Program-made: the position numbers and the translations under genes
NCBI GenBank assembly: GCA_038320555.1
Contig: JBBQEJ010000001.1
Location: forward strand, 17,222-81,221
Origin: Vicinamibacterales bacterium
Lineage (GTDB): Bacteria; Acidobacteriota; Vicinamibacteria; Vicinamibacterales; 2-12-FULL-66-21
Direction: 5' to 3'
DNA length: 64,000 nucleotides
In this document: one piece after another, positions 33,898 through 60,181 of the stretch
Numbering within the stretch: the first letter of the stretch is position 1
How the letters are laid out: every line of letters begins with the position of its first letter
Notes under the pieces: generated by a model
Databases searched by the model: none
Seen by the model: the letters and a program-made list of their open reading frames with translations, nothing else
What the model was told of the DNA's origin: nothing

Positions 33898-34899
33898 GTG
33901 ATCGAAGTCCAGCACATCACAAAACGCTACGGCAACGTGACGGCCGTGGACGATGTCAGTTTTCGCGTCGAGCGGGGCGAAATCCTCGGCTTTCTCGGCC
34001 CGAACGGCGCGGGAAAAACCACCACGATGCGAATCCTGACCGGCTACATGCCGCCGTCGGAGGGGCGCGCCATGGTGGCGGGCTATGACCTGTTCAACGA
34101 CGCGATTGCGGCGAAACGGCGCACCGGGTACCTGCCGGAAACGCCCCCGCTCTATCCCGACATGACCGCGCTCGAGTATCTCGACTTCGTCGCGCGGATC
34201 AAAGGGGTCCCGTCCCGCGATCGGAAGACCCGCGTCGCCGCCGTGATGGAGCGCACGCACATCACAGACGTCGCCCATCGGCACTGCGGCAAGCTGTCCA
34301 AGGGCTACCGGCAGCGCGTCGGTCTCGCGCAGGCGCTCATTCACAACCCCGACGTGCTGATCCTCGATGAGCCAACCGCCGGGCTCGATCCGAAGCAGAT
34401 CATCGAGACCCGCGAACTCATCAGAAGCCTGGCGGGGAATCACACGATCGTCCTCAGCACGCACATTCTTCCGGAAGTCGCCCAGACCTGCGACCGCGTC
34501 GTCATCATCAACAAGGGACGCGTCGTGGCGATCGATACACCCGACAACCTCACCGCGCGCCTCAAGGGTGCGGCGACCCTGTACGTGCAGGTCGATGCCC
34601 AGGGTGCGGATGCCGGCGCCGCGCTCGCGGCGGTCCCCGGCGTCACGCGAGTGTCGAGCGCGGAGCATCCACGCGGCGCGGCCGCGGCGGACGCCGACGC
34701 CGTACCGCCGCCGGCGGGCGTGCCGCAGGCCTTCGAAGTGGAAAGTGAACCGGAAGTCGATGTGCGTCGCGACCTCGCGCGCGCGGTGGTGACGCGCGGG
34801 TGGGGGCTGCTCGAGCTGCGGCCCGTCCGCATGAGCCTGGAGGACGTGTTCCTGCAAGTCACGACCGAGGAAGTTCCGGAGGAGGCGCCCCATGCGTAA
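33898..34899 (+). CDS. ABC transporter ATP-binding protein (GldA-like, ABC-2 type)
   Basis: Walker A GPNGAGKTT, signature LSKGYRQR and Walker B LILDEPTAGLD. GTG start with GGAG 7 nt upstream. Confidence 0.85.
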   Translation: MIEVQHITKRYGNVTAVDDVSFRVERGEILGFLGPNGAGKTTTMRILTGYMPPSEGRAMVAGYDLFNDAIAAKRRTGYLPETPPLYPDMTALEYLDFVARIKGVPSRDRKTRVAAVMERTHITDVAHRHCGKLSKGYRQRVGLAQALIHNPDVLILDEPTAGLDPKQIIETRELIRSLAGNHTIVLSTHILPEVAQTCDRVVIINKGRVVAIDTPDNLTARLKGAATLYVQVDAQGADAGAALAAVPGVTRVSSAEHPRGAAAADADAVPPPAGVPQAFEVESEPEVDVRRDLARAVVTRGWGLLELRPVRMSLEDVFLQVTTEEVPEEAPHA

Positions 34900-35662
34900 C
34901 ATCCTGGCGATTGCCGACAAGGAGCTCCGCTCCTACTTTGCGTCTCCGATCGCGTACATCATGATCGGTTTGTTCTCGCTGCTCTTCGGCGTGTTCTTCT
35001 ATCTGTTCCTGGTGGCGTTCGTACAGCAGAGCGAGCAGATGATGCAATTTGGCGGCGGCGGCGCGCCCAACATCAACCAGATGATGATTGGCGGCCTCTT
35101 CCAGAATACGGCGGTCGTGATCCTCTTCATGATGCCGATGATTACGATGCGGACGTATTCGGAAGAGAAACGGTCCGGCACGATCGAGCTCCTGCTGACG
35201 TCGCCACTGACCGACCTGGAGATCATCGTGGGCAAGTTCATCGGGGCGATGGGATTGTACGTGGCGATGCTGCTCGTCACGATGATCTACATCGGCATCC
35301 TGTTCATCTACGGCAACCCGGAGTGGCGTCCGATCGCCGCCGGGTACATCGGGCTGCTCCTGATGGGCGGCTCATTCATCTCGCTGGGACTCTTCATCTC
35401 GAGCGTCACCAAGAACCAGATCGTGGCGGGGTTCCTCACATTCGGAACGTTTCTGCTGTTGTGGGTCATTGGCTGGTTCGGAGACAACGGCGGCAGTACG
35501 CTGACGCAGAGCATCGTCAAGGGTCTCTCGATCACCGAGCACTTCAGCGATTTCGCCCGCGGCATCGTGGACAGCTACCACGTCGTCTACTACCTCAGTT
35601 TCATCACATTCGGCCTGTTCCTGACCGCCAAGTCAGTCGACATGGAACGCTGGCGCGGGTAA
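34892..35662 (+). CDS. ABC-2 type permease (GldF-like)
   Basis: 256-aa polytopic protein starting MRNILAIADKELRSYFASPIAYI. It overlaps the ATPase gene by 8 nt. Confidence 0.8.
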   Translation: MRNILAIADKELRSYFASPIAYIMIGLFSLLFGVFFYLFLVAFVQQSEQMMQFGGGGAPNINQMMIGGLFQNTAVVILFMMPMITMRTYSEEKRSGTIELLLTSPLTDLEIIVGKFIGAMGLYVAMLLVTMIYIGILFIYGNPEWRPIAAGYIGLLLMGGSFISLGLFISSVTKNQIVAGFLTFGTFLLLWVIGWFGDNGGSTLTQSIVKGLSITEHFSDFARGIVDSYHVVYYLSFITFGLFLTAKSVDMERWRG

Positions 35663-35669
35663 CGCAATC

Positions 35670-37286
35670 ATGCTCAAAAGAGTGCTGGGGCTCGTTGGTT
35701 GGCTTGGCGTGGCGCTCGTGGGCGCCGCGCTGGCGATTTCGCAGTTGAAGCCGGAGTGGCAGTGGTTCAGAACGCTCGCACTCGCCGGGCTCGCGTGTAC
35801 GCTTCTTTACATCCTCAGCCAGTGGCGCGATGTCGCGCGATCGTTTTCGGGCCGCAATGCCCGGCTCGGATCGCTCGCGGCCGCAAGCGTGGTCGTCGTC
35901 CTGGCCCTGCTCGTGGCTATCAACTACCTCGCCAAACGCCACAACAAACGTTGGGACTGGACGGCAGCGCACCAGTATTCTTTGTCCGACCAGACGAAGA
36001 AAGTGCTCCATGGACTGCAGAGGCCCATGCGCATTCGCGTCTACGCCAGGCCCGATGATTTCGGCCGCTTTCGCGAGAGGCTCGATGAGTACCAGTACGA
36101 GAGCAACCAGCTGAAAGTCGAGTACATCGATCCCGAACGGCGTCCGACGCTGGCGAACCAGGACAAGGTCGTGCAGATGAACACCGTCGTGATCGAGTAC
36201 GACGGCCGCACGGAGCGTGTGACAACTGACACGGAACAGGCGTTGACCAACGCCATCATCAAGGTCATTCAGGGGAAGCAGAACAAGCTGTACTTCGTCC
36301 AGGGGCACGGCGAACGGTCGACCGACGATTCGGAACGGACCGGCTACAGCACGATCGCGGGACTGCTGGCGTCGGAGAACTTCGCGACCGATAAGCTCGT
36401 GCTCGCACAGCAGCGGCAGGTGCCGGCCGATGCCAGCGTCGTGGTGATCGCCGGGCCCAAGGAAGACTTCTTCCCCGCCGAGATCGACGCCCTCAAGGCC
36501 TATCTGGCGAAGGGCGGAAAGGTGTTGTTCCTCCTCGATCCCCGCGAGCGCGCCGACTCGCCGCAATTGACCAACCTCATCGCATTGGTGAAGGACTGGG
36601 GCATCGAGGTGGGCGACAACGTCGTGATCAACGTGCCGGCGGATGTTCAGGTCAAAGACGGCGAGGCGATCGACGTCAGCGCGTTGGCGTCGCTGCCCAA
36701 CTCCGATGGCACGTTCGTGCTTGCCGCAAAGTACGCTCCGCATCCAATCGTGCAGGGCTTCCGAATCCTCACCGCGTACCGCCTCGTACGGTCGGTCTCG
36801 GCTGTCGCGTCCAGCAGCGACCGCCGTACCGCTCAGAACGTTGTCGAGACCACGGACACGAGCTGGGCCGAGACGGACATGAAGCGGCTGACGACGTCGG
36901 GACAGGTCGCGCGCGAACCAGCCAAGGGGGACAAGCCGGGGCCGATATCGATCGCCGCTGCGGTGTCGGCGCCGATCGCGGAGACCCCGGCAGCCGATCC
37001 GAAGGACCAGAAGGAGCGCCCTGAAACGCGTGTGGCCGTGTTCGGGGACTCGGATTTCGGCAGCAACGGGCTGCTGGGATTTCAGGGGAATCACAATCTG
37101 TTCATGAACACGGTGAGCTGGCTCGCGCAACAGGAGAACCTGATCTCCATTCGGCCGCGCGACCCGGAAGATCGCCGCGTGACGCTGACGGCCCGGCAGC
37201 AGAGCCTGATCCGCCTGCTTGCGATTTTCGTGATTCCCGGATTGATCCTCGCGGCGGGCGTCCAGACGTGGTGGCGGAGGCGATAG
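35670..37286 (+). CDS. GldG-like ABC transporter auxiliary component
   Basis: N- and C-terminal TM anchors around a large periplasmic domain. Its position after the gldA/gldF-like genes supports the call. Confidence 0.7.
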   Translation: MLKRVLGLVGWLGVALVGAALAISQLKPEWQWFRTLALAGLACTLLYILSQWRDVARSFSGRNARLGSLAAASVVVVLALLVAINYLAKRHNKRWDWTAAHQYSLSDQTKKVLHGLQRPMRIRVYARPDDFGRFRERLDEYQYESNQLKVEYIDPERRPTLANQDKVVQMNTVVIEYDGRTERVTTDTEQALTNAIIKVIQGKQNKLYFVQGHGERSTDDSERTGYSTIAGLLASENFATDKLVLAQQRQVPADASVVVIAGPKEDFFPAEIDALKAYLAKGGKVLFLLDPRERADSPQLTNLIALVKDWGIEVGDNVVINVPADVQVKDGEAIDVSALASLPNSDGTFVLAAKYAPHPIVQGFRILTAYRLVRSVSAVASSSDRRTAQNVVETTDTSWAETDMKRLTTSGQVAREPAKGDKPGPISIAAAVSAPIAETPAADPKDQKERPETRVAVFGDSDFGSNGLLGFQGNHNLFMNTVSWLAQQENLISIRPRDPEDRRVTLTARQQSLIRLLAIFVIPGLILAAGVQTWWRRR

Positions 37287-38612
37287 ATGCGCGGACTGCG
37301 CTTCATCATCCTGCTGCTCGTCGCAATTCCGCTCGGCTGGTATGCGTACCACGACTCGACGAAGGGACCGATTGACGACTCGCCGAAGCGGGACAAGGTC
37401 TTCGCGGTCGAGGCGGACAAGATCGACGAGCTCGAGATCAAGTCGGCGTCAGGCGATCGCACGACGCTCCGCCGCAAGGGCAGCGACTGGGAAATCGTGC
37501 AGCCGATCGCCGCGCCGGCTGATCAGGCGGCCGTTTCCGGAATTACGTCGAACCTCTCATCGGTCGAGATTCAGCGCGTCATCGACGAGAACGCGGCGGA
37601 CCTGAAGGAATTCGGGCTGGCCGAACCGCGTACCGAGGTCGCCTTCAAGTCCAACGGCCAGCAGCGCCGGCTGCAGTTGGGACAGAAGACGCCGTCGGGC
37701 ACCGATGTCTACGCAAAGCTTGCCGACGCCAGGAAGGTGTTCCTGGTCCCGTCCTTTCTCGACTCGACGTTCAATCGGGGCACCTTCGACCTGCGCGACA
37801 AGTCTGTGCTGAAGCTCGATCGCGAGAAGATCGACACGGTGGAAATGACAGCCGGCGGGCGAACCACCCGTGTCGAAAAGAAGAACGGCGAGTGGCAGAT
37901 TGCCGAACCGTCCCTGGGACGTGCCGAATTCGGCGCGGTTGACGGGCTGGTCTCCCGCATCGCTTCCGTGCAGATGAAAGCGATCGTGCCGGACTCGAGC
38001 GACTTGAAGAAATACGGGCTGGACAAGCCGGCCGTCACGGTGCGGCTCGGCTCCGGGTCGTCGCAGGCCACGTTCCTCATCGGCGGTCCTGCCGAGACGG
38101 GCAGTGTCTACGCGAAGGATTTCTCGCGTCCCACGGTCTTCACGATCGAGTCGACGCTCCTTGACGACCTGAAGAAGGATGCATCGGAATACCGCCAGAA
38201 AGATCTCTTCGACGCGCGATCGTTCAACACGACACGGCTCGAGATCGTCCGCAACGGCCAGCCGACCGTCTTCGAGAAGACCAAGGTCAAGGACAAGGAC
38301 GGCAAGGAACAGGAAAAGTGGCGCCAGACCGCGCCGGTTGCCCGGGACGTGGACGCCGCGAAAATCGAGGCACTCATCTCGGCCGCCACTGGCGCCCGCG
38401 CCACCGGCTTCGTGGACAGCGCCGCGATGACGGGACTGGACAAGCCCGAGCTGTCGCTGACCTTCAAGTATGACGAAGGCAAAGACGAGCGCGTGGCCTT
38501 CGCGCGAACGAAAGACGGAGCGTACGCGTCGCGTACGGGCAGTCCGGGTGCCGCCAAAGTCGACGCCACGGTCATCGACACCATCGTCAAAGCATTCGAG
38601 GACGTGAAATAG
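37287..38612 (+). CDS. DUF4340-like periplasmic protein
   Basis: N-terminal anchor and repeated beta-rich modules. It directly abuts the gldG-like stop, as the fourth gene of this conserved cluster. Confidence 0.6.
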   Translation: MRGLRFIILLLVAIPLGWYAYHDSTKGPIDDSPKRDKVFAVEADKIDELEIKSASGDRTTLRRKGSDWEIVQPIAAPADQAAVSGITSNLSSVEIQRVIDENAADLKEFGLAEPRTEVAFKSNGQQRRLQLGQKTPSGTDVYAKLADARKVFLVPSFLDSTFNRGTFDLRDKSVLKLDREKIDTVEMTAGGRTTRVEKKNGEWQIAEPSLGRAEFGAVDGLVSRIASVQMKAIVPDSSDLKKYGLDKPAVTVRLGSGSSQATFLIGGPAETGSVYAKDFSRPTVFTIESTLLDDLKKDASEYRQKDLFDARSFNTTRLEIVRNGQPTVFEKTKVKDKDGKEQEKWRQTAPVARDVDAAKIEALISAATGARATGFVDSAAMTGLDKPELSLTFKYDEGKDERVAFARTKDGAYASRTGSPGAAKVDATVIDTIVKAFEDVK

Positions 38613-40114: not shown

Positions 40115-40200
40115 CTTGGCCTTCCGCCTGTAGCTGTCCTTCCGCCGGTGGCTTGTCCTTCCGCCTAAAGCTTGTCCTTCCGCCTTCAGGCGGAAGAAAA
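40115..40200. repeat. CTTCCGCC-family repeat element, copy 2 (four units at 18-19-nt spacing)
   Basis: CCTTCCGCC occurs at 40120, 40138, 40157 and 40176. The last unit forms the hairpin CTTCCGCC-TTCA-GGCGGAAG at 40177-40196. Confidence 0.9.
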
Positions 40201-40224
40201 TCCCATCACCACTACAATAGACAC

Positions 40225-41022
40225 GTGCCCCGCGCCGTCGTTTTCGTCGTCTGCCTTCTCGCGAGCGGCGTCGGCGCCTGGCTCTGGTACTACAACACCG
40301 GGCGCGCGCACCCGGTAGAGGTGGTGGCGCAGCCACCGGCGCCGGACGGGTGGCTCGATCAGCTCTACAGTTCGAATCCCGCTGACGCCGATGCCGCGGC
40401 GCATCAGGTCGAGGCGCTCGGCCCGGGCGCGCTTCCTCTGATCCACGACACATTCCAGGATCCGGGCGCGTCACACCAGCGGGTCAAGGCCGCGCTGAAA
40501 GCCTGCGCAATCCTCGGGCCGGCAGCCGCTCCGGCCATAGGAGAAGTCGCCGAGCAGTTGCCCGATCCGACGCTGACGGCCGACGCCGCCCTGGCGCTGA
40601 GTTTCATGGGGCGCGGCGCCTTCGGCCCGCTGCGTGACGCGCTCTCCAGCGAGGACCCCGTCGTCCGGCGCGAGGCGCTGCGATCGATCGGGAAGCTCAA
40701 AGAGCGGGCCTCGCTCGATGCCCGCGCGGTCGTGCCCTTGCTGATCGATCGGGCGGTCGATGCAGACCCCGGCGTACGGACCGTTGCCGCAACGTATCTC
40801 GGGATCATCCACGAGGGAGGCCTCGACGCCGTGAACGCGCTGATGGAGGGGTTGAAAGACTCGGAAGCGGATGTCCGGCGCGCCGCGGCAGCGGCGCTGG
40901 GATCATTCGCGGCGGACGCTGAGCCCGCACTGCCGGCACTGCGAAAAGCAGCCGCAGATGCCGATCCGGACGTGGCGCGCGAGGCGGGGGTAACGCTGGT
41001 CAAGCTGCAGCCCAAACGGTAA
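40225..41022 (+). CDS. HEAT-repeat protein with an N-terminal membrane anchor
   Basis: VPRAVVFVVCLLASGVGAWLWYY anchor, then repeated DPxVRxxAAxALG HEAT/PBS-lyase-like units. GTG at 40225 within the longer track ORF. Confidence 0.7.
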   Translation: MPRAVVFVVCLLASGVGAWLWYYNTGRAHPVEVVAQPPAPDGWLDQLYSSNPADADAAAHQVEALGPGALPLIHDTFQDPGASHQRVKAALKACAILGPAAAPAIGEVAEQLPDPTLTADAALALSFMGRGAFGPLRDALSSEDPVVRREALRSIGKLKERASLDARAVVPLLIDRAVDADPGVRTVAATYLGIIHEGGLDAVNALMEGLKDSEADVRRAAAAALGSFAADAEPALPALRKAAADADPDVAREAGVTLVKLQPKR

Positions 41023-41029
41023 CCCCCGA

Positions 41030-42232
41030 TCACGCCGGCTGTGAAGGCCCCGCCTGCAGCAGTCCGCGCGCATACGTGATGATGTCGTCGGCTGAGCCCT
41101 GCAGTCCGCCGCCTTGTGCAAGATCGGGGCGTCCTCCCCCTTTTCCGCCGAACCGCTCGATCAGCTTTTTGAGGACGGCTGCGCTGTCGATCGTCCCGTC
41201 TGCGGCGCGCGCGATCGCGACGGCTGACGGCTGCGGCACGCTGAAAACCACCGCAACATACCCGGATCGCGCGGCAATCGCGGACGCAACGGCCTTCAAT
41301 CCGTTCTGATCCCAGCCTTCCAGGGCCTCGATCACCACCTGGATGTTGCCATACCGCTCGGCACGATCTGCGAGCGCGGCCCCTTCGAACATCGCAAGCC
41401 GCATCTGCAGGTCTTTCAGGTGCCGCTTCGTTTCCTTCGCATCCGCCTGCAGCCGCTCGATTCCCGCAGGCAGTTCCATCGGCAGCACCGACACGAGCCT
41501 GACGCTCGCCGCCATCGCGTCACGCAGCAGCCGATAGCCTTTGAGAGCGCGGACGCCGCACAGAAACTCGACCCGGGTGCCTCCACGAAAGCGCTCGGAC
41601 GATTGAACGGCAATCGCACCGATAGCGCCCGTTCGCGCGACATGGGTGCCGCCGCAGGCGGAAATGTCGAAGTCCGCCACCTCTATCAGTCGAAGCCTTC
41701 CCGTGCGAGCCGGCTCCTTTCGCAGAGGCAGCCTCGCGGCTTCCCCAGCATCAGCGAAGCGAATACCGACGGGACGATCCTCCCAGACGACGCGGTTCGA
41801 GTCGTCTTCAGCACGTTCGATCTCATTGGGTGACAACGGCCGATTGAGATCGATCGTCGACGACGCCGATCCAAGGTGAAAGCTCTCCGTACGCGCGCTG
41901 AACAGCCGATCGAAGGCGGCCGACAACACGTGCTGCCCCGTGTGCTGTTGCATGTGTTCGAAGCGGCGATCCCAGTCGATAATCCCCCGGACCGGCCCGG
42001 GCTCGAGGGGAACGTCAACGACGTGCAGAATCAGGTCGTCGTCGCGATCCACGACCTCGATGACGGCGGCGGTGCCCAGCCGCCCCGTATCGAAGGGTTG
42101 TCCACCGGACGTCGGATAGAACGCGGTGCGGTCGAGCACTGCGGCGAGCCGTCCCTCGTATGGCTCGACACGCAACACGATGGCGTCGAACTCGGCCAGG
42201 TAGGGATCGGTGTAATAGAGACGTTCAGTCAC
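41030..42232 (-). CDS. alaX: alanyl-tRNA editing protein (AlaX-L type, with DHHA1 domain)
   Basis: [11 protein letters not shown] and CGGTHV zinc motifs, with C-terminal [14 protein letters not shown]. The GTG at 42232 makes a GTGA overlap with the queC stop. Confidence 0.8.
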
Positions 42233-42903
42233 GGCCGGGCCCCGGCTGGATCGACGACTCCGGCCTGCGCGAAACCGCGCGCTCGAATGCGGCAACTGTC
42301 GCAGCGGCCGCACGGGAATCCTGACGGCGCCGGATCGTAACAACTATGCGTGAGGCCGTAATCGAGGTCGAGAGGGAGGCCTTCGCGGATGATCTCGGCC
42401 TTTGAGAGGTGCAGGAGCGGCGCCTTGATCTCGATCGATCGTCCCTCAATGCCCGCGCGAGTCGCAAGGGTCGCGACGCGCTCGAATGCGGCGAGGTACT
42501 CCGGCCGGCAGTCCGGATAGCCTGAGTAATCGAGCGCGTTCACGCCGAGGAGGATGGCGTCGGCGCCGATGACTTCGGCCCATCCGAGCGCGAGCGATAG
42601 AAAGATCGTGTTGCGCGCCGGAACGTACGTGGACGGAATGCCGCCGGATTCGAGCTCGCGGTCCTTCGGGATTTCGCCGTCACCGACGAGGGCGGAGCCG
42701 CCAAAAGCCGCAAGGTTCACGTCGAGCTCGACGTGCTTCACCACGTGCAGATTCCTGGCGACATCACGCGCCGCCTCGATCTCGCGCGCATGCACCTGAC
42801 CGTATCGCACCGTCAGCGCGTAGAGCTCGTACCCATCCCGCCGCGCCATGGCGCCGGCCGTGTAGGAATCCAACCCGCCGCTGAGTAAGAGGACTGCTTT
42901 CAT
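42229..42903 (-). CDS. queC: 7-cyano-7-deazaguanine synthase
   Basis: [13 protein letters not shown]-loop and a C-terminal CGRCDSC zinc cluster. ATG at 42903. Confidence 0.9.
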
Positions 42904-42959
42904 AATTGATCTTCCGCCTGAAGGCGGAAGCCACAAAGGCGGAAGCCGCAAAGTCTGAG
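42904..42959. repeat. CTTCCGCC-family repeat element, copy 3 (inside the queE-queC operon)
   Basis: Hairpin CTTCCGCC-TGAA-GGCGGAAG at 42911-42930, then GGCGGAAGCCACAAA GGCGGAAGCCGCAAAG. It shares GCGGAAGCCACAAAG with copy 1. Confidence 0.9.
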
Positions 42960-43601
42960 CTAGACGCCCCTCACATCAGCGCCCCAGATGTACTTATGCG
43001 CCTGGAGCTGCAGCCTGACCGGAAGGCGATCTTCGAGAATCCACGCCGCGAGATCCCTGGACGGAAGGACGTTGTGTACTGGCGAAAACAACACCGCCGC
43101 CGTGCGCCCGACGAGCCCGTGCCGGGCGACAACATCCCGTGCGTACTCGTAGTCGGCACTGTCGCGAATCACGAACTTGACCTCGTCCTGGCGCGTCAGC
43201 AGCTCGAGGTTTTCCCAGTGGTTGTTCGCTGACTGGCCGCTGCCAGGGCACTTCACGTCCACGATGCGGATGACGGATGAGGGAACATCCTTGATGCTGA
43301 GGTGGCCTCCGGTTTCCACCATCACGATTCGTCCCAGGTCGAGAAGTTGTTGCATCAGCGGATACACGTCGCGCTGCAGGAGGGGCTCCCCGCCGGTGAT
43401 TTCCACGAGATCGCACTCGTACGCCTCGACGCGGGACACGACCTCCGCCACGGCCATCTTTGTCCCCTCGGTGAACGCGTATGGCGTGTCGCACCAGGAA
43501 CACCTGAGATCGCAGGCGGTCAGGCGCACGAACACGCACGGCCGGCCCGTGTGGGTCGATTCCCCCTGTATTGAATGGAAAATTTCGTTAATCGTGAGCA
43601 C
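42960..43601 (-). CDS. queE: 7-carboxy-7-deazaguanine synthase (radical SAM)
   Basis: [12 protein letters not shown] and the cluster motif [13 protein letters not shown] at 43601 (VLTINEIF). Confidence 0.85.
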
Positions 43602-43661
43602 TTTCTCTCTATTGTACTTGGGGCGGGGCTGCGGGTCGTCCGCGACGAGTAGAATACGGGG

Positions 43662-43997
43662 ATGCCAAAGACGACGTTTTACTGGAAGCCCACCTGAACA
43701 ACGTGCCGCAACGCCAGAAGTTTTCTGGAGCAGCGTAAAGTGGCGATCGAAGAGCACGATATCAATCAGGAGCCCCCGGCCCGCGCATTTCTCGAGAAAC
43801 ACATCGAGGCGGACCATTTCCTCGATTTCGTGAGCACTCGAAGCCCCGTCTTCAAGCAACGGCCCCTGCCTCGGTCGAAGAAAGAGGCCATCGACCTGAT
43901 GATGGAGCACCCGAACCTGATCAGGCGGCCGATTCTGATCCGCGGGTCCAGCGTCATATTCGGCTTCGATAAGGATGCGTATTCAAAGGCTGAGTAG
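43662..43997 (+). CDS. ArsC/Spx-family thioredoxin-fold protein with an in-frame TGA at the redox Cys position (candidate selenoprotein; alternatively a pseudogene)
   Basis: The ATG at 43662 is in frame with the track ORF 43740-43997. The translation is MPKTTFYWKPT-TGA-TTCRNARSFLEQRKVAIEEHDI..., matching the FYxKPxCxxCRKA N-terminus of this family. An in-frame TAG lies 3 codons upstream of the ATG. Confidence 0.6.
43707..43735 (+). other. SECIS-like stem-loop downstream of the TGA at 43695-43697
   Basis: Upper stem CCAGAA (43714-19) pairs with UUCUGG (43723-28), with loop GUU. A possible 3-bp lower stem is CGC/GCG. The apical loop begins 22 nt after the UGA. Confidence 0.4.
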
Positions 43998-44029: not shown

Positions 44030-44980
44030 ATGCCTGACATTCGCATCGGCACCTCCGGCTGGAGCTACCCCACGGGCAAGGGCACGTGGAACGGGATCTT
44101 CTATCCGGTGCCGCCCGGCCGCCGGTCGGGCCGTGGCGGTGCGTTCGACGACCTTCGATACTACGCCGAGCATTTTGACACCGTCGAGATCAACTCGACG
44201 TTCTACGGTGTGCCCGCTCCGGCCACAGCGCGGGGCTGGGTCGAGCGGACGCCGCCGGGCTTCGAGTTCTCGCTCAAGCTCTTTCAGAAATTCACCCATC
44301 CGGGGATGTTCCTCAAGGCCACCGGGAAGGATCCGTGGAATCTCGGGCAGGAAGATGTGGACGAGTTCCGGGCGGCGATCGATCCGCTGGCGTCGGCCGG
44401 CAAGCTCGGCGCGCTGCTGGCGCAGTTCCCGGCCAGCTTCAAGAACGAACCGGACTCCCGCGCGTATCTCGCGTGGCTGCTGGAGCGATTTCAGGATTAC
44501 CCCGTCGCGCTGGAGCTGCGCCACCGGAGCTGGAGCGATCAACCCGTCGAAACGCTGCAGCTCCTCGCGGCCTTCGGCGCCGCGTGGGCGCAGATCGACG
44601 AGCCGAAGTTCCGGCTTTCAATCCGGCAGAACCTGCTGCCGAACGTGCGGACCTTTTACTATCTGCGCCTTCACGGACGAAACGCCGCGCAGTGGTGGGG
44701 CCACGACAAGTCAGAGGATCGCTACAACTACCTGTACTCCGCCGAGGAGCTCCACCCGTTTGCCGAGGCCGCCAGGGAAGCCTCGCGCGAAGTGAAGAAG
44801 GCCTACCTTTACGCGAACAATCATTTCTCGGCGAAGTCCGTGGCGAATGCCGCGATCCTGAAGCACGATCTCGGACAGCCGCTTCCCGGCGAGTACCCGC
44901 AGGAATTCGTGGATCGCTATCCCGACCTGAAAGGGCTCGTCAAGGTGTTGCCGGACCCTCTTTTACGTACGCCTTCTTGA
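44030..44980 (+). CDS. DUF72-family protein
   Basis: IRIGTSGWSYP N-terminus and YLRLHGRN motif. Confidence 0.8.
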   Translation: MPDIRIGTSGWSYPTGKGTWNGIFYPVPPGRRSGRGGAFDDLRYYAEHFDTVEINSTFYGVPAPATARGWVERTPPGFEFSLKLFQKFTHPGMFLKATGKDPWNLGQEDVDEFRAAIDPLASAGKLGALLAQFPASFKNEPDSRAYLAWLLERFQDYPVALELRHRSWSDQPVETLQLLAAFGAAWAQIDEPKFRLSIRQNLLPNVRTFYYLRLHGRNAAQWWGHDKSEDRYNYLYSAEELHPFAEAAREASREVKKAYLYANNHFSAKSVANAAILKHDLGQPLPGEYPQEFVDRYPDLKGLVKVLPDPLLRTPS

Positions 44981-45497
44981 GGATATCGGCGATCTGAATC
45001 TTGTCGACGATGTCCATGCCCTTGATCACGCGGCCGAACACCGTGTACTTCGTGTCCCACTCGGGATGCGGCTTCGTATTGATGAAGAACTGGCTGTCGG
45101 CCAGCCTGGGATCTGTGCCGGGATACGCCATCGCCACTGCCCCGCGTACGTGCCGCCGCTTTTTCGTGATCTCCGCCACGCCGATCGGCTTCCCGCTGCC
45201 GGAGCGGCCCCACCACTCGCGCAGGGTGACGTTGCGTGACTGCGGATCGCCGATCTGGACGAGCCCGAATCCCGTGTCACCGGCGCGATGAAAGCGCTGG
45301 CCGGTGTAGAAATTTCGTTTCACGAGGCCCACGATCTGCGCAACCGTCTTGGGCGCTTCCTCGGGGTATGTCTCGAACTCGATATTCCCCTTCACGGTCT
45401 CCAGCACGATCACGGGTCCTGCGCCCGGCGACGTCTGGCGCGCCGGCAGCGTGCCGGCCATCACGAGCAAGGCGCACAGGGCCAACCCGGTTCTCAT
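44940..45497 (-). CDS. cyclophilin-type peptidyl-prolyl isomerase (secreted)
   Basis: Signal peptide MRTGLALCALLVMAGTLPA, plus FHR..., SQFFI and VFGRVIKGMDVVDKI-like motifs. Confidence 0.85.
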   Translation of the reverse strand: MRTGLALCALLVMAGTLPARQTSPGAGPVIVLETVKGNIEFETYPEEAPKTVAQIVGLVKRNFYTGQRFHRAGDTGFGLVQIGDPQSRNVTLREWWGRSGSGKPIGVAEITKKRRHVRGAVAMAYPGTDPRLADSQFFINTKPHPEWDTKYTVFGRVIKGMDIVDKIQIADILKKAYVKEGPATP

Positions 45498-45528: not shown

Positions 45529-46293
45529 CTACAGTGCCGCGTTACGGGCGCTCTTTTCAACCGCCACGTCAGCGGCGCTCTTTCCCACCCCCGCGCCACG
45601 AACGATCTTTCCCACCTTCGTGACGCCGATTCTCGGACAAACATCGGCGAGGACGCAAATTCCGCATAACGGGTACACCGGGCGGCACACGTTCTGTCCC
45701 CACGTCACGAGGTACAGATTGACGAGCGGCCACCATTTGCGGTGGACGGCCGCATACAGCGCGTGCTCGGTTTCATCGGGCGTGCGGGTCGCGACCCAGT
45801 CGAGGCGGTTGGAAATGCGGTGCACGTGCGTGTCGACGCAGATGTTATCCGCGCTGCGGTGCGCGAGAATCAGGACGAGGTTGGCGGTCTTGCGTCCGAC
45901 GCCAGGCAGCGTCAGCAGCTCCTCCATGGTCGCCGGCACGACGCCGCTGTAGCGCGACAGGATCTGCTCGCACGTGCGTTTCACGTGCACGGCTTTGTTC
46001 CGGTAGAAACTCACCGGATAGATCAGGCGCTCGATTGCTTTCACCCGCAGCGCCGCCATCGTGCGCGGCGTGCGTGCCACACGAAACAGCCGCGTAGATG
46101 CCGCGTGGGTGACAGCGTCCTTGGTCTGCGCCGACAGCATCGTCGCAATGAGGACCAGAAAGGGATCTTCCTGTTGATCCTCTGCGATTTTCTCGATCGC
46201 AGGTTCATCGAGCCCGTCGATCGCCTGCGCCAGCCGGCGCATCACCGCACGAATCCGTCCACGGGGAACGACCGGTTGCGGCGGGAGCGTCAT
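45529..46293 (-). CDS. nth: endonuclease III
   Basis: HhH motif LPGVGRKTANLVL, DTHVHRISNRL, and the Fe-S cluster CRPVYPLCGICVLADVC. ATGA overlap with the upstream dehydrogenase. Confidence 0.9.
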   Translation of the reverse strand: MTLPPQPVVPRGRIRAVMRRLAQAIDGLDEPAIEKIAEDQQEDPFLVLIATMLSAQTKDAVTHAASTRLFRVARTPRTMAALRVKAIERLIYPVSFYRNKAVHVKRTCEQILSRYSGVVPATMEELLTLPGVGRKTANLVLILAHRSADNICVDTHVHRISNRLDWVATRTPDETEHALYAAVHRKWWPLVNLYLVTWGQNVCRPVYPLCGICVLADVCPRIGVTKVGKIVRGAGVGKSAADVAVEKSARNAAL

Positions 46294-47210
46294 ACCGGGG
46301 TCAGCGGTGCCCTGCCCGACAGCACCTCAAGCACGTTTCTGACCGCAAGATCGGCCATCGCGGTCCGTGTTTCGCGTGTGGCGCTGCCGAGGTGCGGCGC
46401 AAGCACGACGTTGTCGAGCGTAAGGAGTCCTTGAGGGACGAACGGTTCCTTGTCGAAGACGTCGAGCGCGGCGCCCGCGATCATGTGCTCTTTCAGTGCC
46501 CAGACGAGCGCGTCTTCGTCGACGATCGAGCCCCGCGCGGTGTTCACGAGGAGCGCGGATCGTTTCATCCGCGCAAGCGTGCGGCGGCCGATCAGATGCC
46601 GGGTCTCCGGCGTGGCGGGCGTATGGATGGAAATCACGTCGGAGCTGACGAGCAGCTCGTCGAGCGACATGTCGTGCTTCGCAAAGACTGCCGTCATCCC
46701 GAACGCCGGCGCCTTTGCCGCCACCGCGCGACCGATCCGCCCCCGTCCGACAATACCCAGCTGCTTGCCACGAAGCTCCATCCCCAGCATGAAATCGAGC
46801 GCCCAACCCGTCCATCCGCCGCGGCGAATCAACCGATCGCCTTCCGCAATCCGCCTGGCGAGCGTGAGAATCAAGCCCCAGGTCAGCTCGGCCGTCGCCT
46901 CGGTCAGGACGTTGGGCGTGTTGGTCACCACTACGCCGCGCGTCTTGACGGCCGGCACGTCGATGTTGTCGTAGCCCACGGCAATGTTCGCGACGATCTT
47001 GAGCCCCGGCAGGCCCGCGTCCACCACAGCGCTGTCGATCCGATCCGTCAGGAGACAGATCAGTCCTTCCTTCCCCGCGATCCGTTCTTTCAGTTCCTCG
47101 ACCGAGAGCGGAGTCGGACCGTCGTGCAGATCGACATCGCAGGCCGATTCGAGGCGTGCAAATGCAGCGGACGGGATTCGGCGGGTCAGAAGAACGGAGG
47201 GTTTTTTCAC
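46290..47210 (-). CDS. D-isomer-specific 2-hydroxyacid dehydrogenase (glyoxylate/hydroxypyruvate reductase-like)
   Basis: GIVGRGRIGRAVA NAD motif, NTARGSIVDE and APHLGSAT. Confidence 0.85.
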   Translation of the reverse strand: MKKPSVLLTRRIPSAAFARLESACDVDLHDGPTPLSVEELKERIAGKEGLICLLTDRIDSAVVDAGLPGLKIVANIAVGYDNIDVPAVKTRGVVVTNTPNVLTEATAELTWGLILTLARRIAEGDRLIRRGGWTGWALDFMLGMELRGKQLGIVGRGRIGRAVAAKAPAFGMTAVFAKHDMSLDELLVSSDVISIHTPATPETRHLIGRRTLARMKRSALLVNTARGSIVDEDALVWALKEHMIAGAALDVFDKEPFVPQGLLTLDNVVLAPHLGSATRETRTAMADLAVRNVLEVLSGRAPLTPV

Positions 47211-47335: not shown

Positions 47336-47538
47336 TGTCCGTGCGATTCGCAGTAGCCGCAGTGATTGCACAGCACGTTGGGCTCGATCACGCAGGGACC
47401 GCCCGACGGCGGCAGCGCGTAGCGATAGTGGCTGGCGTGCTGCACGAGCACGGCAGGAACCTCGACCGTTTCCTCGCTTCCTGCCAGACGCCTGGCCACG
47501 GCCTCCCGTACCATCTGGCGCAGCATCTCCTCGTTCAT
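47332..47538 (-). CDS. 68-aa Cys-rich protein with an encapsulation-peptide-like N-terminus (BMC-associated)
   Basis: MNEEMLRQMVREAVARRLAG is an amphipathic helix. The C-terminus is C-x7-C-x2-C-x2-C-ESHGH. ATGA overlap with the upstream BMC-P gene. Confidence 0.55.
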
Positions 47539-47813
47539 ACGTCGTCCTTGTAATCGACCACGTCGACAATGCCGATCACCGCCGCGTCCACCGCCGCCGC
47601 CTTGCGTCCGAGCGCGTCGCCGGCTGCCTTCCCTTCGATGACGACCAGCACGCGCTCATCAACACCGGCTCCCACGGAGTCGATCGCGATCAACGCCACG
47701 CCGCGCGGCGTGCCCTCGAGCGTCAGCGGCTGCACGAGGAGCAGCTTCGCACCTTCGAGCTTCCGGTTCTTCTGTGTCGACACGACCGTGCCCACGACGC
47801 GACAAATCTGCAT
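47535..47813 (-). CDS. BMC vertex protein (BMC-P, EutN/CcmL family), paralog 3
   Basis: MQICRVVGTVVSTQK...AIDSVGAGVDERVLV...DAAVIGIVD is the canonical EutN pattern. Confidence 0.85.
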   Translation of the reverse strand: MQICRVVGTVVSTQKNRKLEGAKLLLVQPLTLEGTPRGVALIAIDSVGAGVDERVLVVIEGKAAGDALGRKAAAVDAAVIGIVDVVDYKDDV

Positions 47814-47887
47814 GCTTCAGTTGCCAGGTTCCAGTTACCGGTTTCCAGTTTTCCAGCCGCTAGCCGCCAGCCGCCAGCCGCTTTAGA
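47814..47887. repeat. CCAGTT-type units plus GCCGCTAGCCGCC in a BMC intra-operon spacer
   Basis: TTGCCAGGTTCCAGTTACCGGTTTCCAGTTTTCCAGCCGCTAGCCGCCAGCCGCCAGCCGC combines the motif families seen at 20622-20696 and 5487-5562. Confidence 0.85.
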
Positions 47888-48184
47888 TCAGCGACGGATT
47901 GGAAAATCGAGATCTGACCCCGCCAGATTCCAGTGATCGACGATCCCGACGATCGCGGCGTCGACTGGAGGCTCGGCGGGATAGAACGGAAACGCAGCCT
48001 CGCGGCCGCGAACGAAGAACACATGCTCGCCGGCGCCGGCGCCGACCGAGTCGACCGCCACGAGCGTGCGCCCTGCGCGCTCGCCGGTCGCGGCAATCGG
48101 CTGAAGCACGAGCAGCTTGGTGCTGACAAGGTTCACGTCCTTCACGCTCGCGACTACCTCGCCAATTACCCGGGCCAGCTGCAT
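47888..48184 (-). CDS. BMC vertex protein (BMC-P, EutN/CcmL family), paralog 2
   Basis: MQLARVIGEVVASVK...AVDSVGAGAGEHVF...DAAIVGIVD. Confidence 0.85.
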   Translation of the reverse strand: MQLARVIGEVVASVKDVNLVSTKLLVLQPIAATGERAGRTLVAVDSVGAGAGEHVFFVRGREAAFPFYPAEPPVDAAIVGIVDHWNLAGSDLDFPIRR

Positions 48185-48185
48185 G

Positions 48186-48464
48186 TCAGGAGTCGCCTTC
48201 CTTCACCTGGATCGTATCGACGATGCCGACGATGGCCGCATCGACCGGGCAGTCTTTCATGCCCGCCGCCATGCGGGCCGAGCTGCCGCTCACGATGAGC
48301 ACCGTCTCCCCGAAGCCGGCGTCCACCGTATCGACCGCGACCAGGTACGTCCCCTCCGGCTTGCCGTAGGGATCGACCGGACGCGCGATGAGCAGCTTGT
48401 TGCTGACGAGCCGCTCGTCCTTTCGCGTCGCGACGACAGTCCCCACGATCTTGGCGACGATCAT
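48186..48464 (-). CDS. BMC vertex protein (BMC-P, EutN/CcmL family), paralog 1
   Basis: [15 protein letters not shown]...[15 protein letters not shown]...DAAIVGIVD. Confidence 0.85.
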
Positions 48465-48754
48465 TTCGTGGTGGCGTTCGCCTTACCGATCGGGAGCGCG
48501 TCTTCGAGGTTGGCGTGCGGGCGCGGAATCACGTGCACCGACACCAGCTCGCCCACACGCCGTGCGGCGGCCGCCCCGGCGTCGGTCGCGGCCTTCACCG
48601 CGGCCACGTCGCCGCGCACGATCGCCGTCACGTACCCGGCGCCAATTTTTTCCCAGCCAACCAGCGTGACCTTCGCGGCCTTGACCATCGCGTCGGCCGC
48701 CTCGATCATCGCGACGAGACCCTTAGTCTCGACCATGCCGAGCGCCTCACCCAT
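48461..48754 (-). CDS. BMC shell hexamer protein (BMC-H, PduA/EutM-like)
   Basis: [27 protein letters not shown]...[11 protein letters not shown]...VHVIPRPH. Confidence 0.9.
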
Positions 48755-48831
48755 GCGTTGCCTCCTGCGCTTTCAGCTACCAGCTACCAGCCGCGAGCCG
48801 CCAGGGCTCTCTGCTAGCCGACAGCCGCTGA
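48755..48831. repeat. CAGCTAC/CAGCCGC-type repeat units in the aldolase to BMC-H spacer
   Basis: CAGCTACCAGCTACCAGCCGCGAGCCGCCAGGGCTCTCTGCTAGCCGACAGCCGCTG. Confidence 0.7.
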
Positions 48832-49686
48832 CTATTTCAGATGTTTGACCGCTTCCTCTATTAATGCCGTGAGCTCGCGGTATGTTAGCCGAATTTCGTC
48901 ATCCGCACCTATGGGACTCATCCGCCCGGGAACGAGGCGCTCGCCGCCGGCGGAAGGAGGCGCGAACAGGACCTGACAGTCCTCCGACGCACTCTCGGAC
49001 GCCGCAACGGGATCGGAGCAGATCGGCGCCGGCGCGGCGATGCCGTACCGGCCCCTGAGTCCCTGCAGGCGCATGACTTCGTCGCGTGAGAGCAACCGCT
49101 CGCCACCGAGCATCCGGGCGACAAAGCTGATGTTCGCGAAGTGCTCGATCGTCTCCATCTTGTAATACGCGGAGAACAAATCGGCGCCGAGCGTCAGCGC
49201 GCCGTGATTCGCGAGCAGCATGCCGTCGTGCGCCTTGACGTATTTGCGCACGGCCTCGGGCAGCTCCTTCGTTGACGGCGTGGCGTACTCCGCGATCGGC
49301 ACGCTCCCGAGCGTGGTCACGACTTCGGCAAGCACGGCACGATCGAGCGGGATTCCGGCAACCGCGAAGGCCGTCGCTACGGGCGGATGGGCGTGAACCA
49401 CCGCCTGAATCTCCGGGCGCTGTCGGTACACCTCGAGATGCATCTGCATCTCCGACGACGGGTTCCGCTCGCCGGCGAGCTTCCTGCCCTCGAGATCGGT
49501 AATGACCATCATCTGCTCGTTCATGAACCCTTTGCAGACGTTTGTGGGGGTCATGAGGAGCCGCTCGGCATCGAGCCGGACGCTGATATTGCCGTCGTTC
49601 GATGCCGTGTACCCGCGTGCGTACAGACGTCGGCCGACTTCGACGATATCGGTCCGGAGCTGGGATTCGAGGGGTGCCATCGCCAT
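48832..49686 (-). CDS. class II aldolase (fuculose/rhamnulose-phosphate aldolase-like) with a C-terminal extension
   Basis: SNDGNISVR, VVHAHPPVATAF and LANHGALTLG motifs. A low-complexity linker of about 60 aa ends in the amphipathic helix LTYRELTALIEEAVKHLK. Confidence 0.85.
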   Translation of the reverse strand: MAMAPLESQLRTDIVEVGRRLYARGYTASNDGNISVRLDAERLLMTPTNVCKGFMNEQMMVITDLEGRKLAGERNPSSEMQMHLEVYRQRPEIQAVVHAHPPVATAFAVAGIPLDRAVLAEVVTTLGSVPIAEYATPSTKELPEAVRKYVKAHDGMLLANHGALTLGADLFSAYYKMETIEHFANISFVARMLGGERLLSRDEVMRLQGLRGRYGIAAPAPICSDPVAASESASEDCQVLFAPPSAGGERLVPGRMSPIGADDEIRLTYRELTALIEEAVKHLK

Positions 49687-52327: not shown

Positions 52328-53677
52328 TCATCCCAGGTGTTCGCGTACGGCGCCGGCAATTTCGGCCGCCCACGCCTGAATCTGCTGTTGATCCTTCCCC
52401 TCGATCATCACGCGCAGCAGCGGTTCGGTGCCGGAATAGCGGACGAGCAGGCGGCCCTCGCCTGCGAGGCGGCTTTCCACGCGCGCCATTGCGTCCGCGA
52501 TCGACGGCACGGCCGCCAGCTCCTGCTTTTCGCGGACGCGCACGTTCACGAGCACCTGCGGATACGTCACGAGCTCGGAGGCGAGATCCGCCAGCTCGCG
52601 CCCGCTTTCAACCATCACGCGCAGGACGCTGAGGGCCGTCACGATGCCATCCCCCGTGAACAGGTGCTCGGAGAAGATGATATGCCCCGATTGCTCGCCG
52701 CCGATCGAGAGGTCGCGCTTGATCATCTCCTCCATGACGTACTTGTCGCCGACCGCGCATCGAACGAGATCGATGCGGCTGTCGCGAAGGGCAATCTCGA
52801 GGCCGATGTTGCTCATGACGGTGGCGACGACGGCATTTCCCTTCAGCCGGCCGCCCTGCTTCCAATGGCGGGCGCACATGAGCAGGACCGCGTCGCCGTC
52901 GACCACGCCGCCGTCGGCGTCGACAAAAATCGCCCTGTCGCCGTCGCCATCGAAAGCCACCCCCATGCGGCAGCTCAGAGCACGAACCGCCCTGGCGATC
53001 TGTTCCGGGTGCGTGGACCCGGAGTCGAGGTTGATGTTGCGGCCGTCGGGCGTCGCGCTCAGCACGTGAAGATCGCATCCCAGCTCGCGAAACAGCCGCG
53101 GCGCGACAGTCGTGGTGGCGCCGTTGGCCGTGTCGATCGCGAGCCTGAACGGGCCGAGCCGCCCGGCGTCCGGCAGCGCCAGCCGCGCGTGCGCGATGTA
53201 CGCGTCGATGACGTCGGTCCGATCGACCGGCACGTCGGAGGCGCCGCCCACCGACCAGGTCCGGTCGGCGATGATCGTTTCCACCTCGCGCTCGAGCGTT
53301 TCCGTGAACTTCTCCCCCTTCCCCGAGAAGACCTTGATGCCGTTGTCCTCGTATGGATTGTGCGAGGCCGAGATCACCAGGCCGGCATCGAAGCCCATTG
53401 CGCGCGTCACATAAGCGATTGCCGGCGTCGGGATGACCCCGGCACTCGTGATCTCCGCGCCGGCTGAGTGCACACCGCGCGCGAGCTCGCGCTCGATCCA
53501 TTCGCCCGATTCGCGCGTGTCGCGCCCGACCACAAATCGCAGCGGCCGACCCGGGGTGGTCGACCCGCCCATCGCGCGTACCAGCGCGCCGCCGAGGCGC
53601 GCCACCGTCTCGTGGTCGAGCGGATAGTCTCCCGCCTTTCCGCGGACGCCGTCGGTGCCAAACAGTCGATGGGCCAT
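52328..53677 (-). CDS. glmM: phosphoglucosamine mutase
   Basis: LFGTDGVRG, ISASHNPYEDNGIK and GDGDR motifs. Confidence 0.95.
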   Translation of the reverse strand: MAHRLFGTDGVRGKAGDYPLDHETVARLGGALVRAMGGSTTPGRPLRFVVGRDTRESGEWIERELARGVHSAGAEITSAGVIPTPAIAYVTRAMGFDAGLVISASHNPYEDNGIKVFSGKGEKFTETLEREVETIIADRTWSVGGASDVPVDRTDVIDAYIAHARLALPDAGRLGPFRLAIDTANGATTTVAPRLFRELGCDLHVLSATPDGRNINLDSGSTHPEQIARAVRALSCRMGVAFDGDGDRAIFVDADGGVVDGDAVLLMCARHWKQGGRLKGNAVVATVMSNIGLEIALRDSRIDLVRCAVGDKYVMEEMIKRDLSIGGEQSGHIIFSEHLFTGDGIVTALSVLRVMVESGRELADLASELVTYPQVLVNVRVREKQELAAVPSIADAMARVESRLAGEGRLLVRYSGTEPLLRVMIEGKDQQQIQAWAAEIAGAVREHLG

Positions 53678-53705
53678 ATGAAGGAGCTGGGAACGACGCG
53701 GGAAT

Positions 53706-54617: not shown

Positions 54618-54618
54618 C

Positions 54619-54653
54619 CAATCCCTATTCCCTAATCGAATCGCGAATCGCTA
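54619..54653. repeat. five phased heptamers in the cdaA-cdaR spacer
   Basis: CAATCCC TATTCCC TAATCGA ATCGCGA ATCGCTA is the reverse-complement flavour of the GATTCG/TTAGGGA units at 47294-47328. Confidence 0.75.
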
Positions 54654-55466: not shown

Positions 55467-55801
55467 GCAGGGATAGCTTATCTGATGGCAGCCTCAAAAG
55501 GCGGCGCGACAGAAAGGCCGGCGGCGGCGCTCTGAACGGCAGCTGACGTAGGGAAAACAAGTCCTGCGAGGACGCGTGGCGTGATAGGAAGCCGGAATAG
55601 GCCAACCGGGGGGAAACGGCGGATGCGGTACCACGTGATCCGGCCAGATCAAGAGCGACTGCTGAACCGTCAGGCCGGTGAGCTTGGCTGATTCATGTAC
55701 TCAGCCGCGGTCACGGCGACGGCTTTTGAGACACCGGCATCATAGGGACTGGTGTGCGACGCGCCTGGTGGGGAAACTGTTGCTACAGGCTGTGAACCCC
55801 G

Positions 55802-56674: not shown

Positions 56675-56747
56675 GGAAAAAAGAGGAAAGGGAAAGGGAA
56701 AAGGGAAAAGGGCCTTCTTGCCTTGTCCCTTTGCCCTTTTGCCTTGC
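56675..56747. repeat. GGAAAG/GGAAAAG array with a complementary CCCTTT/CCTTTTG half (hairpin)
   Basis: GAGGAAAGGGAAAGGGAAAAGGGAAAAGGGCC ... GCCTTGTCCCTTTGCCCTTTTGCC lies between ftsH and folP. Confidence 0.8.
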
Positions 56748-58657
<1,910 letters not shown>

Positions 58658-58661
<4 letters not shown>

Positions 58662-60073: not shown

Positions 60074-60104
60074 TTGCGCGTACCTTGTCAGCGAAGAAAA
60101 GAAA

Positions 60105-60181
60105 TGGTGGCGGTGCAGGGACTTGAACCCCGGACAACGCGGATATGAGCCGCGTGCTCTAACCAGCTGAGCTACACCGCC
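60105..60181 (-). tRNA. tRNA with CAU anticodon (elongator Met or Ile2; not initiator-like)
   Basis: Hand-folded 77-nt cloverleaf. Acceptor GGCGGUG/CACCGCC, D arm GCUC/GAGC, anticodon stem CGCGG/CCGCG with loop CUCAUAU, T arm CGGGG-UUCAAGU-CCCUG, and an encoded CCA. Confidence 0.85.

Follow-up and report, generated by a model that had tools for sequence, protein, structure and literature searches.

Is an in-frame TGA near the beginning of a small ArsC/Spx-family gene a stop codon, or is it read as selenocysteine (Sec)? The question is posed by a gene on the forward strand of a 64,000-nucleotide stretch of a Vicinamibacterales contig (JBBQEJ010000001.1), the whole of which is called the window below. 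Automatic listing of open reading frames (ORFs) gives only the last 85 codons of this gene. A first-pass annotation, made from the letters of the window alone, extended the frame upstream across the TGA and proposed that the TGA encodes Sec. Comparison with relatives supports the proposal: the TGA is conserved, coding conservation is found on both sides of it, and a hairpin just downstream is linked to the UGA forms. On these comparisons we hold it very likely that 43662-43997 is a Sec-decoded selenoprotein gene. The features by which bacterial selenoproteins are usually predicted (strategies are described in PMC9312934) are all seen here: a conserved in-frame UGA, pairs of Sec and Cys homologues at a redox cysteine, and a downstream stem-loop. 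The stem-loop is conserved beyond what the protein needs.

Read from the ATG at 43662, the ORF gives MPKTTFYWKPT, the TGA (43695-97), TTCRNARSFLEQRK and then the GTG at 43740, and it ends at TAG 43995-97. The ATG is the sole possible start ahead of the TGA, because an in-frame TAG and three codons that are not starts precede it. The frame as first described (the ATG, the TGA, the upstream TAG and the listed 85-residue ORF from the GTG) is thus borne out by the sequence, and so is the claim that the TGA replaces the first Cys of a CxxC pair. Full-length homologues of about 110 residues (64-79% identity) carry an invariant WKP[TS]CTTCR, and the UGA falls on the first Cys of that motif and on Cys10 of Spx. 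The second Cys of the pair, Cys15, is invariant among the TGA forms described below (TGC in 78, TGT in 5). The coordinates are collected in Table 1.

Table 1. Positions of the candidate selenoprotein gene, its sequence elements and its nearest neighbours in the window
Feature	Position	Strand	Remarks
ArsC/Spx-family coding sequence, full length	43662..43997	+	111 codons plus TAG stop; in-frame UGA is codon 12 (proposed Sec12)
In-frame TAG closing the frame upstream	43650..43652	+	followed by AAT ACG GGG (N, T, G), none a start codon
In-frame TGA, proposed Sec codon	43695..43697	+	aligns with first Cys of CTTC in Cys homologues, Spx Cys10 and E. coli ArsC Cys12
TGC, Cys15, predicted resolving cysteine of UxxC motif	43704..43706	+	aligns with Spx Cys13
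Hairpin resembling a Sec insertion sequence	43714..43728	+	5' arm CCAGAA 43714-43719, loop GUU 43720-43722, 3' arm UUCUGG 43723-43728
GTG, annotated start of truncated 85-residue ORF	43740..43742	+	Val27 of the full protein
DUF72/YecE gene	44030..44980	+	Pfam DUF72, 4e-58; 32 nucleotides downstream, co-oriented
Radical-SAM gene (QueE-like), divergent	42960..43600	-	Pfam; start provisional
queC	42229-42951	-	Pfam; beyond the QueE-like gene
AlaX-like gene	41030-42343	-	Pfam

How widely is the TGA shared? A protein search returned thousands of homologues, of which those at 92-94% identity are all listed as 85-residue truncations. In close metagenome relatives (92-94% amino acid identity, from several samples) the TGA is present in 6/6 contigs, with the N-terminal peptide in frame and intact. 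A scan of species representatives (one genome per GTDB species) found 136 relatives, and the best 80, all metagenome-assembled genomes (MAGs) of Vicinamibacterales/Acidobacteriota, were retained. Codon 12 is TGA in 76 of these best 80 and TGC in four (L013, L030, L048 and L086); because the query was a Sec form and the genomes retained are those closest to it, 76/80 should not be read as an unbiased estimate for the order. The relatives thus carry the TGA together with the conserved hairpin; a TGA confined to one strain, without conservation of the hairpin, is not what was found. One MAG (GS_HAYS_MAG_00036) has two different copies of the Sec-form locus, L008 and L016, on contigs JBKPNQ010000163.1 and JBKPNQ010000124.1; this could reflect duplication, strain heterogeneity or a binning mixture.

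The set of TGA forms comprises 83 independent assemblies, with the same M-x-K...KPT-TGA-TTC layout throughout and, outside the hairpin region, 64-100% nucleotide identity (mean 75%). The TGA codon has zero entropy in 83/83. The codons at -3 to -1 (K, P, T) and +1 to +3 (T, T, C) encode amino acids that are invariant or nearly so, and their third positions vary, with entropies of 0.85-1.49 bits (0.33 for Cys). Because invariant amino acids go with variable third positions, this pattern argues that the frame is translated on both sides of the TGA and is under purifying selection. An assembly or sequencing error can be rejected since the 83 independent assemblies agree. Reassignment of UGA throughout the genome is likewise rejected: TGA is the commonest stop in the window, ending 23 of the 43 confidently called genes, and any recoding is therefore local to this site. 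A scan of the window for further in-frame TGA candidates returned only a gene junction at 18960, a weak negative, as its thresholds also missed the arsC-like gene itself.

The first-pass annotation also pointed to a hairpin of the kind expected for a bacterial Sec insertion sequence (SECIS). It is present as described, at +17 to +31 after the UGA, its stem beginning 16 nucleotides (nt) past that codon and its loop separated from it by 22 nt, and it is conserved together with the UGA. The hairpin overlaps the codons for Ala18-Arg19-Ser20-Phe21-Leu22-Glu23, and in the 83 TGA forms the codons of the stem-loop are essentially frozen as GCC-AGR-AGT-TTT-CTG. Ala at +6 is GCC and Leu at +10 is CTG in 83/83; Arg at +7 is AGA (73) or AGG (10) and never CGN; Ser at +8 is AGT in 76; and Phe at +9 is TTT in 57, with TAT in 15 and TTC in 7. 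These are not the codons that the window favours: AGA makes up 2.5% of its Arg codons, AGT 3.8% of its Ser codons and TTT 20% of its Phe codons, AGA and AGT being the rarest or near-rarest of their synonymous sets. Elsewhere in the gene the Arg, Ala and Leu codons of the same 83 forms vary freely.

Pairing was counted in 79 distinct aligned sequences. Over the six pairs of the hairpin, the paired share of cells is 96.8%. At pair 24-30, 69 sequences have A-U, eight have G-C and two have G-U, and in no sequence is the pair broken; the G-C state takes two synonymous changes, AGA to AGG and TTT to TTC. Pair 25-29 is A-U in 62, G-C in one and G-U in one; in the other 15 it is open, with an A-A produced by a Phe to Tyr replacement that enlarges the loop from GUU to AGUUA. 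The G at the first position of the loop never varies. Counted on a neighbour-joining tree, the changes at pair 24-30 amount to about four parsimony steps (G-C in two clusters, plus the two G-U forms), and the single G-C at 25-29 is separate. The covariation in these alignments is real, on few events.

Forms with Cys in place of Sec provide a contrast. Nineteen were assembled, namely the four TGC genome loci and 15 metagenome orthologues found by scanning with a degenerate pattern for the TGY version and requiring the signature PPxRxFL[ED]xH. A stem of at least 5 base pairs (bp) stands at the SECIS position in 83/83 TGA forms versus 3/19 Cys forms (Fisher p=5e-16, a value uncorrected for phylogeny and inflated by shared ancestry). 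At the hairpin residues the Cys forms use CGN, AAR, AGC, GCC and CTC: the Arg codon is CGG, CGA, CGC, AGA or AGG, or is replaced by one for Lys, and the Leu codon is CTC as often as CTG. On the neighbour-joining tree, a noisy one built from 100 codons, the Cys forms are scattered among the Sec forms with at least nine switches by parsimony. This distribution suggests repeated exchange of Sec and Cys, followed by decay of the hairpin.

Two further observations come from the Cys forms. L030 carries the exact GCCAGAAGTTATCTGG of the Sec forms. The scan for the Cys pattern also brought up a second, distinct CTTC-containing ArsC/Spx-like family (…LQKPSCTTCRNARAYMEKCGFDLRLRD…NMKENPPSR…) in L088, L094, L101, L106, L110, L122 and L123; the copies seen in that scan are all Cys forms.

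Several results weigh against Sec decoding, or at least against giving the hairpin too much credit. Of its six pairs four are invariant, which leaves the other two, with few independent events, to carry the covariation. The hairpin persists in three Cys forms (L030, 6034-6090; L086, 6034-6090; and L121), which is consistent with recent conversion of Sec to Cys before the hairpin had decayed. Folded as a single sequence, the 66-nt stretch is unremarkable: its minimum free energy (MFE) has z = -0.59 against dinucleotide shuffles, and at -14.7 kcal/mol it matches the average over 5000 synonymous recodings (-14.66 +/- 3.4 kcal/mol), in which the peptide was kept and codons were drawn according to their usage in the window. 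About a quarter of those recodings contain a perfect hairpin of 6 bp or more. The hairpin is thus small and no more stable than either control, and a thermodynamic significance of the single hairpin, considered as a separate line of evidence, was rejected on both; a reading of the hairpin as striking by itself is not supported. Its significance comes from comparison with relatives and not from the window alone. Nor did the possible CGC/GCG lower stem hold up: it is paired in 44% of cells across the 79 relatives and is absent from the RNAalifold consensus.

Rfam gave no SECIS-type match, either at the gathering threshold on the window, where it returned only a tRNA-Met, or at E<=10 on 43600-43800. 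To our knowledge Rfam has no model for the bacterial SECIS, so this null carries little weight. The machinery of Sec insertion was also looked for. Neither selA, selB, selD nor tRNA-Sec was found in the 64-kb window (Pfam on 50 window ORFs, ARAGORN and Rfam), ARAGORN found no tRNA-Sec in 60 related loci, and tblastn with E. coli SelA, SelB and SelD had no match in the window and all loci (1.13 Mb). These loci are syntenic copies of one neighbourhood, and the machinery nulls are therefore uninformative on the rest of the genome.

Could the TGA simply mark a dead or a shorter gene? The first-pass annotation had itself named a Cys-to-stop pseudogene as the alternative, and a related reading takes the 85-residue ORF from GTG 43740 to be the only functional product. 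One substitution turns TGC or TGT into TGA, public gene calls all give the 85-residue product, and the hairpin of the single sequence is not statistically special. Such readings do not sit with a TGA fixed in 83 independent assemblies at 64-100% nucleotide identity, nor with codons that, both before the TGA and from the TGA to the GTG, show invariant amino acids and variable third positions. The fragment would also be without beta-1 and the CxxC helix, as the fold aligns with Spx structures from residue 4-5. The GTG itself is replaced in many relatives (among the 83 TGA forms the codon at 43740 is GTG in 29, ATC in 21, GTC in 16 and others in the rest). Since it is not conserved as a start, the annotated start is, on this comparison, a gene-calling artefact; it is shared by 39/39 members of the public 90% cluster, all 85-residue fragments named 'arsenate reductase' or 'arsenate reductase-like glutaredoxin family protein'. 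The comparative data exclude both readings, to which we give next to no credence. A more elaborate possibility is that the hairpin has nothing to do with UGA decoding, being for example a protein-binding or mRNA-stability element or the product of a constrained peptide or codon context, and that it accompanies the TGA through shared ancestry only. Most TGA forms are indeed close relatives, which inflates the Fisher test, and the three hairpin-bearing Cys forms could be cited here too. That the Cys forms are interspersed among the Sec forms, most of them having lost the rare-codon hairpin independently, speaks against it, as do the distance from the UGA and the loop G, both as expected of a bacterial SECIS. 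The motif is also nearly absent otherwise from related sequence: in 1.13 Mb, both strands, a degenerate version has one other occurrence (in L042), probably by chance. We regard an unrelated hairpin as very improbable.

Somewhat less improbable, though still quite unlikely, is that the UGA is read through but not as Sec, with a suppressor inserting Cys or Ser and the hairpin serving as the recoding signal. A tRNA-Sec-like tRNA(Cys) acting via a SelB paralogue, an allo-tRNA with a UCA anticodon, or a near-cognate tRNA(Trp/Cys) could do so in principle, and the sequence evidence proves recoding and an RNA signal tied to it but does not identify the residue. Acidobacteria carry allo-tRNAs that have been proposed as missense or nonsense suppressors, and for deltaproteobacteria it has been proposed that a selC* tRNA(Cys) with SelB* reads UGA as Cys (PMC5389517). 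The selC* tRNAs were, however, reported from Firmicutes, Thermodesulfobacteria, Nitrospirae and Proteobacteria, not Acidobacteria, and the genomes that have them also had the complete Sec apparatus (PMC5389517). Moreover, the position is that of the nucleophilic Cys of a thioredoxin-fold CxxC motif, the classic Sec/Cys site of many UxxC families (PMC2398784), and Cys insertion through UGA plus a hairpin would be hard to keep across some 80 species when TGC is one mutation away.

If Sec decoding is correct, the UGA at 43695 would be recoded by the standard bacterial route. The stem-loop, of 5-6 bp with an apical loop starting with the invariant G, would be bound by SelB-GTP-Sec-tRNA(Sec), and Sec would be delivered to the UGA. 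Translation would then carry on to the TAG at 43995 and give a 111-residue thioredoxin-fold protein with the motif U12-T-T-C15, which might cycle between selenol/thiol and selenenylsulfide states as a reductase or a redox sensor. In this scheme we infer Sec as the inserted residue, the binding of SelB to the hairpin and the biochemical role, each from sequence. The hairpin itself is most likely a minimal bacterial SECIS, a putative assignment with which its geometry agrees: the bSECISearch model allows 16-37 nt from the UGA to the apical loop and expects a G first in the loop, and here the distance is 22 nt and the G is present. In the E. coli fdhF SECIS, the paradigm of a SelB-binding element, the stem-loop lies within the ORF 3' of the UGA, has a loop G, and a short upper stem suffices if it is spaced correctly. 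The hairpin described here shares with it the place within the ORF, directly after the UGA, and the apical G. It is the smaller of the two, with 5-6 bp and a loop of 3-5 nt, lacks both a bulged U and a conserved lower helix, and stands 16 nt from the UGA where fdhF has a spacer of about 11 nt.

What kind of protein would be made? Family searches were run with the 111-residue product, Cys being put in place of the stop/Sec. Pfam ArsC (PF03960) matched residues 7-109 with 52.7 bits against a cut-off of 24, and Glutaredoxin also matched. The top NCBIfam match was TIGR01617 (Spx/MgsR), at 75.1 bits against 75.05 with that substitution. Scores for the Spx equivalogs NF002459, NF009210 and NF009885 were far below their cut-offs, as were those for true ArsC (TIGR00014, 39.1 against 106.05; NF007456, 21.9 against 242) and for the YffB type (NF008107, 40.3 bits against 121; the match to PDB 1rw1 had E=7.8e-10). 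NF041106, 'ArsC_rel_Se_1, ArsC family (seleno)protein', scored 28.4 bits against a cut-off of 85; with the protein below that cut-off, annotation pipelines presumably leave its UGA unrescued. The closest solved structures are of Spx: 3l78 (E=1.8e-14, residues 5-106) and 1z3e and 6ghb (about 1e-12), with about 103 residues aligned, and U12 and C15 fall on C10 and C13, the redox switch of Spx. ArsC structures in the PDB matched as well, and the alignment to the solved Spx structures is enough to fix the fold. An arsenate reductase function was considered and rejected: the motif is CxxC and not CGTS, the third Arg of the catalytic triad Arg60/Arg94/Arg107 lies in an insertion that ArsC has and this protein does not, the ArsC models score low, and the neighbours are queE/queC and DUF72, not arsR/arsB. 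Judged by sequence, the product is an ArsC/Spx-superfamily UxxC redox protein that is neither an arsenate reductase nor a canonical Spx, and the NCBIfam scores mark its subfamily as distinct.

With Spx as the best match in both structure and family, and with the UxxC falling on its switch, one may ask whether the product is a true Spx-type redox sensor, working with RNA polymerase or another partner, in which a selenenylsulfide between U12 and C15 would replace the disulfide. We think this unlikely. The column of Spx Gly52 holds His in the window protein and Arg or His in relatives, and the protein ends at residue 111, without the C-terminal tail of Spx (residues ~115-131). In Spx, Gly52 is needed for binding to the C-terminal domain of the RNA polymerase alpha subunit, and Gly52 and the tail both matter for polymerase binding and proteolytic control; the replacement of the one and absence of the other weigh against the canonical Spx mode of action. 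Were the product such a sensor, it would be the first Sec-containing transcription regulator that we know of, and its conservation across the closest relatives, in an abundant and mostly aerobic soil order, would imply that their stress response requires selenium.

Selenoproteins of this general kind have been described before. ArsC-like selenoproteins were reported in Desulfotalea and Desulfuromonas, and Acidobacteria were counted in 2006 among the phyla with selenoproteins, with three families and four proteins (PMC1794560). The Global Ocean Sampling (GOS) survey listed 'Arsenate reductase 1' (pfam03960, UxxS) and 'Arsenate reductase 2' (cd03032 ArsC_Spx, Spx-like, UxxC) (PMC2398784), and both ArsC-like kinds appear in a 2022 review (PMC9312934). 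The earlier statement that ArsC-like selenoproteins are known from metagenomes was therefore correct. The gene described here resembles the ArsC-like or 'Arsenate reductase 2' selenoproteins of Zhang and Gladyshev in its fold family (ArsC/Spx, COG1393), in having a proposed Sec for the first Cys of CxxC, in its abundant Cys homologues and in a putative coding-region SECIS just after the UGA. Compared by published description, the reported members come from marine metagenomes and deltaproteobacteria whereas the present clade consists of soil Vicinamibacterales and has conserved motifs of its own, PPxRxFLExH and RSPVFKxRPLPxSK, and a conserved DUF72 partner. Proteins of the NF041106 family are also ArsC-family proteins with Sec or Cys at the active site, but the window protein falls outside that subfamily. 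With Spx/MgsR (B. subtilis Spx, 1Z3E; Streptococcus Spx, 3L78) it has STRS and LxRRPI motifs in common, yet it has 111 residues against 131, and Spx, a regulator of Firmicutes, has Cys where Sec is proposed here. E. coli ArsC has CGTS in place of CxxC, its Cys12 matching the UGA. In the literature searched we found no report linking Vicinamibacterales (Vicinamibacter, Luteitalea) or Spx-type proteins to Sec. Given that ArsC/Spx-like UxxC selenoproteins are already known, this gene is an unannotated addition to them and points to no new mechanism.

What sets the case apart is near-universal conservation in the nearest Vicinamibacterales species, systematic misannotation and the contrast between Sec and Cys forms in the hairpin. 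The Vicinamibacterales (Acidobacteria subgroup 6) belong to the most abundant bacteria in soil. A correction would add a selenoprotein to dozens of their genomes, where public calls now show truncated 'arsenate reductase-like' fragments, and a selenoprotein in 76/80 of the nearest species-level genomes would imply that the Sec trait, and with it a demand for selenium, is widespread in the lineage. This one small gene, with its 83 Sec and 19 Cys forms, also offers a clean natural contrast between a minimal SECIS held by rare codons and its decay after a change from Sec to Cys, and as a data set these forms should be useful for training predictors of bacterial SECIS elements and selenoproteins.

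The neighbourhood of the gene is itself well conserved. The order alaX-like, queC, queE-like (minus strand), arsC-like, DUF72 (plus strand), PPIase, nth (minus strand) is kept in 72-77 of the 80 loci; DUF72 lies downstream on the same strand in 76/80 of these, and QueC and AlaX have the same offset and strand in 72-76/80. No terminator-like site was found between the arsC-like gene and DUF72, and one was found past DUF72 at 45050-45071. The selenoprotein gene and DUF72 are predicted to be co-transcribed, probably as a unit, and may form a functional pair; co-expression of the two would be part of the scheme set out above.

Other parts of the window held some minor features. Between a PBP4-like carboxypeptidase and the AlaX-like gene lie two small ORFs on the minus strand (40186-40446 and 40471-40812; 86 and 113 residues) with coding-like GC content at third codon positions and no Pfam match. 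A bacterial-microcompartment shell cluster occupies 47535-49686 on the minus strand, with EutN/CcmL pentamer genes at 47535-47813, 47888-48184 and 48186-48464, a BMC-H gene at 48461-48754 and a class II aldolase at 48832-49686; a 2-hydroxyacid dehydrogenase (46290-47210) adjoins it, and the locus looks like a sugar- or aldehyde-processing one. At 33898-38612 (plus strand) an ATP-binding cassette (ABC) ATPase, an ABC-2 permease, an ABC_transp_aux/DUF7088 protein and a DUF4340 protein resemble the ABC transporter clusters of the gliding-motility (Gld-like) type. The minus-strand gene at 13429-16848 encodes a protein of 1139 residues, probably cell-surface or adhesin-like, that contains a Calx-beta domain and four CARDB repeats. 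Finally, glmM, a ybbR-like gene, cdaA (cyclic di-AMP cyclase), folP, ftsH, tilS and tRNA-Met (60105-60181) lie at 52328-60181 on the minus strand and mark the window as chromosomal core.

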